A DNA stretch of 64,000 bases from Escherichia coli (GTDB lineage Bacteria; Pseudomonadota; Gammaproteobacteria; Enterobacterales; Enterobacteriaceae): NCBI RefSeq assembly GCF_003334765.1, contig NZ_QOWT01000001.1. One strand, 5' to 3'. How positions within the stretch are numbered: the stretch's first letter is position 1; every line of letters starts with the position of its first letter. Below are positions 1 to 58,217 of the stretch, piece by piece. The translations under genes and the position numbers were made by a program. The notes beneath the pieces are model-generated. The model ran no database searches and was not told where the DNA came from. It was given only the letters and a program-made list of their open reading frames with translations.

Positions 1-1267
1 TGGTCAGTTTTTTCAGTGTGGCGTTAATACTGTCCTGTGCGCTATCAATAATGCCATCATCGGCAAGGTAACCTTTTACCTCGGTGGTAATTTTGGTGGT
101 AATTCCTGTTTCTTTACCATCGCCTACCAGCAATTCACGTACGGATGCTGTATTTTCATTCAGGACTTTTTTGAGTTTATCATCATCAATTTTCAGCTTA
201 CCCGTCGTGCCGTCCTGCTTAATCCCGATCTCGTTTAATGTTTTGAAGGCACCGTCGCTGGCACCGTTTGCAAATTGTGCGCGGATGCCGCTTTGAATTG
301 TACGTACAACGCTGTCTCCGAGAAGTGCACCATTATTTTTATCTTGTGCTTCAGCACCTGGGTCTACTTCTTTATATTTTGTCAGGGTGTTAAAGGTGTC
401 AATGAGGGAGTTATATGAATCCACCCAGCCTTTAATTGCTTCGGTTGCTTTATCGTTGCTTTTTGTCACCGTGACCCGGACGTCAGTGACTTTTTTGGTC
501 AAATCGAGAGTCACTCCCTGAGGAGCATCGGTAATTTTGTTACTTGAACGTTCAATATCGATACCGTTAACGTTTAGCTGTGCATTTTGCGCGTTAACCA
601 GTTCCTTCATATTCCCGGTGTTGGTCTTGCTGTCATAAGCCAGCAGATCATTTAATTTACTGTCACCCTCAACAGATATGGTCATTTTATTGGCCAGACC
701 TTCACTGGCGGTCAATACCAATTGATAGTCACCATCTTTGACTTTAACGATACTAGCGGAAATTCCACTATCGGCATCGTTAATGGCTTTGCTGATCTCA
801 CCCAATGACGTCTGATCTTTATTGAGCTTGATTTCCAGCGGCTCTTTACGGCCGTCTTGGGTAATTTTTATTGTGCGTGTATCTGATGACTCATCACCCA
901 GTGCATCTTTTGTTGATGCAATGATTGTCGGGGAATCAGTTCGTAAAGATTGCGCCTGCGCCAGTTGGGTTACGCTGATGGTATAGATACCGGGGGCAGC
1001 ACCTGCTTCGGTGGAAACTTTAAGGTCTTCATTGCTACTGGTAACGGTAGTGCTTTTGAACAGATCGGCTTTATTTAACGCAGTATTTGCAGTCTGGAAT
1101 TTTTCTAATGCACTTTTTAATGTGCCATAGGCTGTCAGACGTGCGGTATTGTCACTCTGTTGCTGAGTAATTGGGTTTAAGCGTTTTTTTTCAGCGATGG
1201 TCAGGTTGTTTAGCAATGTATCCAGCGGCAGATTCGAACCAACGCCAAGAGATGTAAATGAAGCCAT
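1..1267 (-). CDS. fliD: Flagellar filament capping protein FliD (HAP2), N-terminal ~420 codons; 3' end lies beyond window start
   Basis: Minus-strand reading frame from ATG at ~1265-1267 translates MASFTSLGVGSNLPLD...TAYGTLKSALEKFQTANTALNKADLF, FliD-like; divergent from fliC as in E. coli. Confidence 0.85.
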   Translation of the reverse strand, partial: MASFTSLGVGSNLPLDTLLNNLTIAEKKRLNPITQQQSDNTARLTAYGTLKSALEKFQTANTALNKADLFKSTTVTSSNEDLKVSTEAGAAPGIYTISVTQLAQAQSLRTDSPTIIASTKDALGDESSDTRTIKITQDGRKEPLEIKLNKDQTSLGEISKAINDADSGISASIVKVKDGDYQLVLTASEGLANKMTISVEGDSKLNDLLAYDSKTNTGNMKELVNAQNAQLNVNGIDIERSSNKITDAPQGVTLDLTKKVTDVRVTVTKSNDKATEAIKGWVDSYNSLIDTFNTLTKYKEVDPGAEAQDKNNGALLGDSVVRTIQSGIRAQFANGASDGAFKTLNEIGIKQDGTTGKLKIDDDKLKKVLNENTASVRELLVGDGKETGITTKITTEVKGYLADDGIIDSAQDSINATLKKLT

Positions 1268-45754: not shown

Positions 45755-46061
45755 TCCCTGAACAGTATAAAAAACGAACGATAACCGTGATCTGTTGAGC
45801 GGGTGACAGTGCGCATAGCGTTGTGCTAAAAATATTGTATATATTCACATTAATTATGGGATTTAAATTACTAAAACTGATAAATATATATTCTAAATAG
45901 CAACTGGGTTATTCCTTAGCAATTAATGATTACATTGTAATAAATCATATTCTTTATCGATTGTTTCAGGCAGTGTTGTGCCTAATTATGCAAGCGGTTA
46001 ATTCGTTGTATATTTAATTATACAATGATTTCGGTGTCCAGTAATTTAATTAGAGGAATCT

Positions 46062-56817: not shown

Positions 56818-57339
56818 ATGGCTATTATTCTCGGCATTGATCCGGGTTCGCGCGTGACCGGCTACGGCGTCATCCGCCAGGTAGGTAGGCAACTGTCCTA
56901 CCTGGGTAGCGGATGCATCCGCACCAAAGTGGATGATTTACCGTCTCGTCTGAAACTCATCTATGCGGGCGTGACGGAAATCATCACTCAGTTCCAGCCT
57001 GATTATTTCGCCATTGAACAAGTCTTTATGGCAAAGAACGCTGACTCAGCCCTGAAACTGGGCCAGGCGCGCGGCGTGGCGATTGTGGCGGCGGTGAATC
57101 AGGAGTTGCCAGTATTTGAATACGCGGCACGTCAGGTAAAGCAAACGGTGGTAGGTATTGGCAGTGCCGAAAAAAGCCAGGTGCAGCATATGGTCCGCAC
57201 CTTGCTGAAACTGCCCGCTAATCCACAGGCGGATGCCGCCGATGCGCTGGCGATTGCTATCACCCACTGCCACGTTAGTCAGAATGCGATGCAGATGAGC
57301 GAATCGCGGCTGAACCTGGCGAGAGGGCGACTGCGTTAA
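56818..57339 (+). CDS. ruvC: Holliday junction resolvase RuvC
   Basis: 173 aa [21 protein letters not shown]... Confidence 0.95.
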
Positions 57340-57340
57340 G

Positions 57341-57943
57341 TTATACCGCCTCGGTCAGTTCCGGCTGAGGCGTTTCCACTCCCTCCGCATGAATCAACAC
57401 CAAACCCGGATGATGCCACAAACTGGCTGGCGTGACGGTTTTACGCTCCCACGGAATAGAACCCAGGAACCAGAATTTCCAGAAAGTGAGTTTTGCATTC
57501 GGATTGCTATTTAACAATTCTCCAAACGTCTCTATTTCACCCACCGGAATACATAGCGCTTCTTTATAAATATCAAAAACAAATTTTGAACAGAACTGGC
57601 GCGAAGATTCGTATTTAAAACCGGTGTGGTAAAGTTTGCGTAGCCGGGAGGGAACCTGTTCAACAATTCGTTGTTTTTGTCGTTCTGTCAGCCCAGCGTC
57701 TAATCGCTTTATAGCATAGCGTTGATTAGACGAACGTTTAATAAAACGAGATAGCGTGGTGATGGTTGAAAGGGGAACCCGGCTTTCTGCAACCAGGAAG
57801 TCTTCACCGTTATGACCGATAATGATCCCGACGTGATTACTCCAGCAATTTGATGCAGCTGATATTTGACCAAATAAGGCAGCACCTATACATGTAAAGA
57901 CGATATCTCCAATTTCATATTCAGCAGGGTAATTAATATTCAC
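57341..57943 (-). CDS. yebB: Uncharacterized protein YebB (DUF830, permuted papain-like fold)
   Basis: 200 aa from (V)[19 protein letters not shown]...; start chosen by homology within a 233-codon frame. Confidence 0.8.
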
Positions 57944-58097
57944 GTTGTCATTCCATTGAAATAGATACAAATATACGTAATAGCATAAAAAATTTATTTT
58001 TTCAGGAGGCGCAATGTATATTTTTATTACGCATTTCTTCACTGAATATGTAATATTAAAATATTTGCTTCCAATATAACCTGTAGAATAAATTATA

Positions 58098-58113
58098 CTG
58101 TGCCATTTTTCAG
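58098..58113. promoter_or_regulatory. LexA (SOS) box, distal, ruvAB promoter
   Basis: CTGTGCCATTTTTCAG within TACTG-N10-CAGT. Confidence 0.5.
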
Positions 58114-58150
58114 TTCATCGAGACACCTCGCAAGTTTTCTTCATCCTTCG

Positions 58151-58166
58151 CTGGATATCTATCCAG
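58151..58166. promoter_or_regulatory. LexA (SOS) box, proximal, ruvAB promoter
   Basis: CTGGATATCTATCCAG, a perfect CTG-N10-CAG palindrome ~50 nt upstream of ruvA. Confidence 0.65.
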
Positions 58167-58217
58167 CATTTTTTTATCATACAGCATTATCTTTGATTCA
58201 TTACGCAGGAGCGTCAT

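Follow-up and report, generated by a model that had tools for sequence, protein, structure and literature searches.

The ruvAB SOS operator of Escherichia coli and a probable LexA-box look-alike upstream of it

The SOS box of the ruvAB operon of E. coli K-12 was reportedly described by Benson et al. (1988) and Shinagawa et al. (1988), and it is said to be included in the compilations of Lewis (1994), Fernandez de Henestrosa (2000) and Courcelle (2001). The boxes of lexA and recN lie within or beside the promoter and about 20 bp apart. More generally, LexA boxes that cooperate are adjacent or overlapping, with about 20 bp from centre to centre, not the 53 bp that separates the two sequences treated here. 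At uvrA/ssb, a single box is placed among divergent promoters.

The locus described in this report can be compared with each of these systems. Its proximal box is identical to the K-12 ruvAB SOS box in sequence, genome and operon, and there is no difference between them. Like lexA (two boxes) and recN (three), the ruvAB operon is preceded by more than one sequence of the form CTG-N10-CAG. The boxes of those operons all have HI values in the binding range (3.5, 8.5 and 10.1 for recN, 7.25 and 7.45 for lexA/dinF; PMC11002266 supplement), whereas the distal sequence at ruvAB has an HI-like value of 14.5, is centred 53 bp off, near -81, and lacks conservation. As at uvrA-ssb, whose shared LexA box was the model behind the earlier suggestion about yebB, divergent genes flank a LexA site (shared LexA boxes of divergent genes have been noted in PMC8072944). 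Unlike at uvrA-ssb, however, the small gene yobI and at least 93 bp of DNA stand between the proposed yebB promoter and either box. There is also a likeness to intrinsic terminators that overlap the promoter of the next gene: here, too, a GC-rich stem of 7-9 bp with a 4-nt loop and a U7 tract follows a stop codon, in DNA held in common with the -35 and -10 hexamers. The stem at ruvAB differs from those overlaps in being a repressor operator as well, and termination at it is a prediction, with no E. coli 3' end mapped there (PMC7815308). The reading that we consider very likely is that the proximal box is the classical ruvAB SOS operator, that the distal box is a look-alike, and that yebB most likely is not controlled by LexA.

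The ruvC-ruvA region

The window (the whole 64,000-nt stretch of E. coli DNA that was analysed) contains a region, 57300-58900, with 100% identity to E. coli K-12 MG1655 and with matches in each of the 5426 complete E. coli genomes. Open reading frames and annotation place three ruv genes on its plus strand: ruvC, which ends at 57339 (RefSeq); ruvA (58218-58829), which starts with GTG; and ruvB (58838-59848), which together with ruvA forms the regulated operon. On the minus strand and convergent with ruvC is yebB (57341-57943; ORF and RefSeq annotation), which also starts with GTG and encodes a permuted papain-like enzyme of 200 aa. The original prediction had named these four genes, and E. 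coli as their source, correctly, as the reading frames, the annotation and the identity to K-12 all attest. It had also described a region shared by divergent yebB and ruvA; the genes and their strands are as described, but a gene between yebB and the boxes had been overlooked. This gene, yobI (58014-58079, plus strand), is annotated in RefSeq as “stress response small protein YobI”. It has 21 codons and an AGGAGG ribosome-binding site, and its ATG and stop codon are seen in the sequence. The spacer from the yebB GTG (57943) to the ruvA GTG (58218) measures 274 bp, not the 275 bp given before. An Rfam scan of 57300-58300 returned a single sub-threshold match, which is spurious.

Both 16-mers on which the prediction rested were located exactly, and both fit CTG-N10-CAG. 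The distal LexA-like sequence has the core CTGTGCCATTTTTCAG at 58098-58113, within the 20-mer TACTGTGCCATTTTTCAGTT at 58096-58115. The proximal sequence, the LexA operator of ruvAB, has the core CTGGATATCTATCCAG at 58151-58166, within the 20-mer CGCTGGATATCTATCCAGCA at 58149-58168. A match to the bare pattern is weak evidence by itself: the window contains 28 such matches, mostly intragenic, against 12.9 +/- 3.4 in shuffled sequence. Every position of the window was scored with a symmetrised 20-bp LexA matrix made from the 19 sites printed in PMC3009722, with ruvA excluded, and the 20-bp consensus TACTG(TA)5CAGTA served for comparison. A site at window positions 146-165 falls in fliD, as judged by BLAST against annotated genomes.

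The scores upheld one of the two boxes and not the other. The proximal box scored 18.5 bits (HI-like 8.3) and ranked first among 63,981 positions in the 64-kb window. The proven sites in the matrix extend from 12.9 bits (polB, the weakest, with an HI-like value of 11.7) up to 28 bits. The distal box, at 8.0 bits (HI-like 14.5), ranked fourteenth, behind 13 unrelated positions in the window; it falls under every proven site used, and its match to the consensus lies outside their range.

The LexA operator of ruvAB

The proximal box is an inverted repeat with 6-nt arms, CTGGAT and ATCCAG (7 nt if the flanking G and C are counted), around the centre ATCT. It had been called a perfect palindrome, which overstates its symmetry slightly: the centre is not self-complementary, and 14 of the 16 positions are symmetric. 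The box covers the -35 hexamer of the ruvAB sigma-70 promoter (58152-58180, plus strand) and extends into its spacer. The promoter consists of TGGATA (58152-58157), a 17-nt spacer and TATCAT (58175-58180). This was the sole promoter-like site that a promoter scan found in the region, and the same hexamers were assigned to ruvAB by Shimada et al. from genomic SELEX with RpoD holoenzyme (PMC3946193). The position of the -10 hexamer would place the ruvA transcription start near 58186-58187, and the centre of the box at about -28 relative to that putative start. A centre near -28 is the classical position for repression of the occlusion type.

The literature agrees with this assignment. The ruvA SOS box listed in PMC3009722, TTCGCTGGATATCTATCCAGCATTT, is the same sequence as the proximal box. 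Induction by AZT is given as 2.0x for ruvA and 2.8x for ruvB, with a lexA dependence of 1.9x and 2.6x, respectively, and an HI of 7.6 (PMC11228462); with ciprofloxacin, ruvA and ruvB rise by log2 of about 1-1.6 (PMC11002266). A curated table holds a single HI (7.59) for ruvA/ruvB (PMC11002266 supplement). The SOS induction of ruvA, the absence of which was to count against the original prediction, is thus on record as a lexA-dependent induction of ruvA and ruvB of about 2-3-fold. Induction of ruvAB escaped detection at very low concentrations of ciprofloxacin (bioRxiv 10.1101/2024.11.28.625836), and Salmonella ruvA has LexA-independent basal expression and was not detected as induced by nalidixate (PMC8072944). 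The weakness of ruvAB induction accounts for its being missed under both of these circumstances. With the top matrix score in the window and the lexA-dependent induction reported in the literature (PMC11228462, PMC11002266), the proximal box is confirmed as the LexA operator of ruvAB, which was already established; its dependence on LexA is taken from those published data.

Conservation was gauged in a set of 80 Enterobacteriaceae ruvA loci, one genome per species, of which 79, E. coli K-12 included, have enough upstream DNA. All 79 carry CTGGAT-N4-ATCCAG, with invariant arms and a variable 4-nt centre, and it lies almost always about 66 bp ahead of the ruvA GTG. From the palindrome through the -10 hexamer, the four Escherichia sequences compared are identical. 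Within E. coli, 5390 of the 5426 complete genomes have an exact copy of the 30-mer that surrounds the proximal box.

The geometry of the site and the literature together suggest how ruvAB would be controlled. A LexA dimer would bind CTGGAT-N4-ATCCAG at 58149-58168 and, once bound, would mask TGGATA, the -35 hexamer, together with part of the spacer, and so hinder RNA polymerase. After DNA damage, LexA self-cleavage stimulated by RecA would free the promoter, and ruvAB expression would rise about 2-3-fold. Repression of this kind, by occlusion at the -35 hexamer, would be leaky because the operator is of moderate strength.

The distal sequence, the inserted segment and yebB

The distal box begins 19 nt after the yobI stop codon. 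Its centre lies at about -81 relative to the inferred ruvA start, a position ill suited to a repressor that acts by obstructing RNA polymerase, and 53 bp from that of the proximal box. It does not overlap the promoter of the regulated operon, and the only promoter that it overlaps is a hypothetical one on the minus strand. When the AT-rich spacer (205 nt, 29% GC) was shuffled by dinucleotides, a site scoring at least as well as the distal box arose in 5.0% of shuffles (P = 0.05), and an exact CTG-N10-CAG arose in 0.8%. Against chance, then, the match is marginal, neither negligible nor convincing. An internal control for chance matches is found next to the operator itself: a LexA half-site look-alike, CATTTTTTTATCATACAGCA (58167-58186), adjoins the operator and overlaps the -10 hexamer. 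It outscores the distal box, at 8.6 bits (rank 10), and its CAG has become CAA in three other Escherichia species.

At the position of the distal box, no site of at least 7 bits was found in any of the 78 other species, the yebB-bearing genera included. Even within Escherichia, the sequence decays. It reads TACTGCGCCGTTTTTCAGAT in one other species; it is TACAATGCC... in another, where the CTG is lost and CAA stands in its place; and it cannot be aligned in E. albertii. Several alleles exist in E. coli. Among the sampled strains, K-12 and O157:H7 carry TACTGTGCC...CAGTT. The allele TACTCTGCC...CAGAT, that of strain 2014C-3307, has a broken CTG (CTC), and the allele TACTGCGCC...CAGAT scores less than 1 bit. 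On these comparisons, the distal box is under no detectable constraint.

These data bear on the possibility that the distal box is an auxiliary LexA operator, at which a second dimer would help to hold LexA on the main operator and make ruvAB repression tighter in E. coli lineages with the K-12 allele. The box does match CTG-N10-CAG exactly, with a perfect TACTGT left half, and the pattern is rare in the spacer shuffles (the 0.8% given above); but its score is far from that of polB, the weakest proven site (8.0 against 12.9 bits), and the chance half-site beside the operator does better. The two substitutions that set the K-12 allele apart from the other alleles are both toward the LexA consensus. 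Yet 1602 of the 5426 complete E. coli genomes (30%) have the K-12 30-mer that surrounds the distal box; the allele is missing from the other 70%, some of which no longer have the CTG, whereas the main operator is fixed. The 53-bp spacing is close to five helical turns and would put both boxes on the same face of the helix, but the site is not present in the other species examined. Multiple boxes are known at SOS genes (recN three, lexA two; PMC11002266 supplement), and a passage in one review credits “SOS boxes”, in the plural, near the ruv promoter to the 1988 sequencing papers (PMC4080785); curated lists, on the other hand, give ruvAB one HI (PMC11002266 supplement). A full-text literature search found the proximal 16-mer in one paper and no occurrence of the distal one, and a full-text search for two SOS boxes at ruv returned a single unrelated paper, on Leptospira. 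An auxiliary role is, in our judgment, very improbable. The claim of two LexA boxes upstream of ruvAB finds no support, given the low score of the distal box (an outcome that the original prediction had itself named as counting against it), its absence from the other species examined, its polymorphism in E. coli and the single curated HI for ruvAB. Its weakness and poor conservation indicate that the distal box is probably non-functional, and it should be left out when LexA sites are counted.

The history of the surrounding DNA is in keeping with this reading. In 50 species, the ruvC stop codon lies 6-14 nt (mostly 12) before the palindrome. About 29 other species have unrelated DNA between ruvC and the palindrome, with a junction 0-2 nt from CTGGAT. 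This insert carries yebB in Escherichia, Pseudocitrobacter and a small number of others, and different content elsewhere; yebB was found in a minority of the genera sampled, and homologues of yobI were found, among those genera, in Escherichia only. In the window, the insertion (57340-58148) is a lineage-specific, low-GC segment between the ruvC stop codon and the operator palindrome, and it comprises yebB, yobI and the distal box. The flanking genes ruvC and ruvA have a GC content of 0.52-0.58, yebB one of 0.42-0.46 and the spacer one of 0.31. In E. coli N96, the segment has been replaced wholesale by two hypothetical genes at the same place. The yebB-yobI segment is a recent insertion, absent from most Enterobacteriaceae. 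The distal box lies within this lineage-specific insertion and falls outside the ancestral control region of ruvAB.

Whether yebB is influenced by the SOS response, as the original prediction proposed, depends on where its promoter lies. Promoters have been proposed for both genes of the segment: TTGTCA-15-TACAAA for yobI (window 57945-57971) and, on the minus strand, CTGAAA-17-TATTAC for yebB (window 58005..57977; PMC3946193). Further, RpoS holoenzyme binds the yebB-yobI spacer in vitro (PMC5493296). The proposed promoters lie in the yebB-yobI spacer, 93 bp from the distal and 146 bp from the proximal box, and these distances are too great for a mechanism of LexA occlusion at yebB. The idea of SOS control is itself already published: in 2009, a network inference from expression compendia and “a high scoring LexA site” upstream predicted yebB as a LexA target (PMC2689187). 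This prediction is not independent evidence, because the site that it places in the yebB regulatory region is the ruvA box. No entry for yebB or yobI was found in the supplements of PMC11002266 or PMC3009722, and no transcription start site for the region was found in the Cappable-seq and ROSE supplements when these were searched by gene name and coordinate prefix. With yobI intervening and the proposed promoters at least 93 bp from the boxes, yebB is most likely not under LexA control through either box.

A further reading would rescue control of yebB by making the distal box the operator of an unannotated minus-strand promoter, directed toward yobI (antisense) and yebB, such that yebB would be SOS-inducible in strains with the K-12 allele. 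A candidate can be drawn, TCGATG-18-TATAAT, with the box in its spacer and a perfect TATAAT (58097..58092) adjoining the box. However, its best -35 hexamer, spaced by 18 nt, has 3 of 6 matching positions, and the candidate failed the promoter scan. Both RpoD and RpoS holoenzymes bind the spacer in vitro (PMC3946193, PMC5493296), but the published yebB promoter is elsewhere, at the minus-strand position given above (PMC3946193). The 2009 prediction of yebB as a LexA target would seem to favour such an operator, but it rests on the ruvA box and so lends no independent support (PMC2689187). The distal box is, moreover, weak and polymorphic, and the yebB-bearing genera outside Escherichia are without such a site. 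We regard this arrangement as very improbable indeed. The preferred reading, in which yebB lies outside LexA control, is retained, and yebB should not join the SOS regulon on present evidence.

A terminator-like element overlapping the operator

A terminator scan flagged 58150-58167 plus ATTTTTTTAT. The resulting terminator-like element (58150-58175, plus strand) comprises a hairpin, GCUGGAU-AUCU-AUCCAGC, at 58150-58167, a single A, and U7 at 58169-58175. It has the hallmarks of an intrinsic terminator, namely a stable hairpin, a U7 tract one nucleotide after the stem, and a co-directional gene upstream. In E. coli, the hairpin has a 7-bp stem and a 4-nt loop, with a predicted RNA folding energy of -10.6 kcal/mol (z -5.25). 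The genera in which ruvC is adjacent have hairpins of -14.7 to -16.1 kcal/mol, and z is about -4.4 to -5.3 overall. Among the 50 species with adjacent ruvC, the stem has 9 bp in 47, GG..CC flanks are present in 49, and T7 follows in 46. The element starts 6-14 nt (mostly 12) past the ruvC stop codon in these 50 species and 70 nt past that of yobI in E. coli. Expression of yobI may be too low for detection by 3'-end mapping at the U-tract.

These features raise the possibility that the operator palindrome is primarily, or equally, an intrinsic terminator, in addition to its roles as the ruvA -35 hexamer and LexA operator. The hairpin (A)GGCUGGAU-NNNN-AUCCAGCC(U) followed by U7 would end the yebC-ruvC transcript in most Enterobacteriaceae and the yobI transcript in E. 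coli. The folding energies are favourable, the 9-bp stem, the flanks and T7 recur just after the ruvC stop in nearly all of the 50 species, and the 4-nt loop varies freely; but the stem offers no covariation, since its arms never vary, and conservation of the arms is demanded also by LexA and the -35 hexamer. The flanks are another matter. The LexA matrix penalises G at positions 1 and 2 (-2.0 and -0.6 bits), and so LexA binding does not explain the invariance of the GG..CC flank bases. The T-run, for its part, lies within the promoter spacer and might be retained for promoter reasons. In the ruvC-adjacent species, there is no room for another hairpin between ruvC and ruvA, and the LexA-independent basal expression of Salmonella ruvA (PMC8072944) would fit read-through from ruvC. 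For E. coli, however, no 3' end is listed in MG1655 1945900-1946299 by Adams et al. 2021 (PMC7815308 supplements), and the same supplements put the 3' end of E. coli ruvC within yebB, where a Rho-dependent signal is recorded. On balance, we place such a double role just short of an even chance. A terminator role would account for two features of the ruvAB SOS box, its unusual G-rich half-sites and its near-perfect symmetry. It would add to the explanation of the proximal box as the ruvAB SOS operator and would not replace it.

The comparison across species suggests that the operator doubles as a ruvC terminator in most Enterobacteriaceae. Tentatively, and leaning somewhat against the full scheme, we can envisage a triple module of about 35 bp that would unite an upstream terminator (for ruvC, or for yobI in E. 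coli), the ruvAB -35 and -10 hexamers, and the LexA operator. In such a module, the need for a stem would dictate the sequence of the SOS box, read-through would give LexA-independent basal expression of ruvAB, and the 5' side would be a recurrent site of insertion.

The ruvAB operator is textbook material, and its confirmation adds nothing new; the useful outcome of this analysis is the negative one reached for the distal box and yebB. Of modest interest to specialists is the spot just upstream of the operator palindrome, which appears to be a hotspot for varied accessory DNA. If the terminator role is true, the ruvC terminator/operator would offer a compact example of an operator sequence under the constraint of overlapping DNA and RNA codes.

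Terminator-like anatomy and a recurrent insertion point at the ruvA operator

The proximal LexA operator palindrome upstream of ruvA, together with the T7 that follows it, forms an element with the anatomy of an intrinsic terminator (58150-58175, plus strand). At the ruvA loci of other species (L003-L081) it lies about 70 nt upstream of ruvA, and in 50 species it begins 6-14 nt past the ruvC stop codon. In this ruvC-adjacent set the stem is 9 bp long and the flanks are GG..CC, which LexA disfavours. In E. coli, published 3'-end tables (PMC7815308) contain no mapped 3' end at 58150-58175.

Insertions recur at the position directly 5' of the palindrome, which in E. coli is occupied by window 57340-58148, where the GC content falls to 0.31-0.46. 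In Escherichia the insert carries yebB-yobI, and in Pseudocitrobacter, as in some Kluyvera, Klebsiella and Enterobacter, it carries yebB without yobI. E. coli N96 has two hypothetical genes there (268-2490 of locus L086), and the DNA inserted in Kosakonia and Phytobacter is unrelated (loci with inserts, Kosakonia and others: L042, L043, L053-L055, L063 and L067). An insert of another kind, of about 125 bp, lies in the ruvA 5' leader of Pseudenterobacter timonensis and Enterobacter sp. RIT418 (L040, L077), between the -10 element and the GTG, so that the operator there stands at -195 relative to the start codon. It includes AAGCTCCTGGGGATTCAC, which we take to resemble an ERIC/IRU repeat.

Genes and signals between ruvC and ruvA

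The genes ruvC and yebB are convergent, and a single base separates their stop codons (window 57339-57462 corresponds to MG1655 1946865-1946742). According to 3'-end mapping, the primary 3' end of ruvC is at window 57387, antisense within yebB, and a bicyclomycin-sensitive (Rho-dependent) signal lies at about 57462 (PMC7815308).

The yebB-ruvA spacer, which the original prediction of two LexA boxes took to be empty, in fact contains yobI (58014-58079, plus strand), an annotated small-protein gene of 21 codons whose ribosome-binding site, AGGAGG, is strong. The gene has yebB on one side and both boxes on the other; homologues were found in Escherichia alone, where those of two further species are 81% and 62% identical. 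The minus strand carries a perfect TATAAT (58092-58097) that directly adjoins the distal box and is directed at yobI (antisense) and yebB; the best candidate -35 for it is only TCGATG at a spacing of 18 nt. Next to the real operator, and overlapping the -10, lies a LexA half-site look-alike, CATTTTTTTATCATACAGCA (58167-58186), that at 8.6 bits scores above the distal box; its CAG is replaced by CAA in all three other Escherichia species compared.

Other LexA-like sequences in the window

The second-best match in the window to the LexA matrix, TGCTGTATTTTCATTCAGGA (146-165; 17.5 bits, HI-like 8.8), scores about as well as the ruvA operator. It lies within the fliD coding sequence, in an allele present in only 863 of 5426 genomes. 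Another match, TATTGTATATATTCACATTA (45833-45852; 15.1 bits), falls in the cutC-torY intergenic spacer and has CAT in place of CAG; it is probably AT-rich promoter DNA, not a LexA site. The bare CTG-N10-CAG pattern occurs 28 times in the whole window versus 12.9 in dinucleotide shuffles, roughly a twofold excess that presumably reflects codon usage (CTG for leucine, CAG for glutamine). Given this excess, and given that nearly all occurrences are in coding sequence, the bare pattern is a poor predictor of LexA sites.
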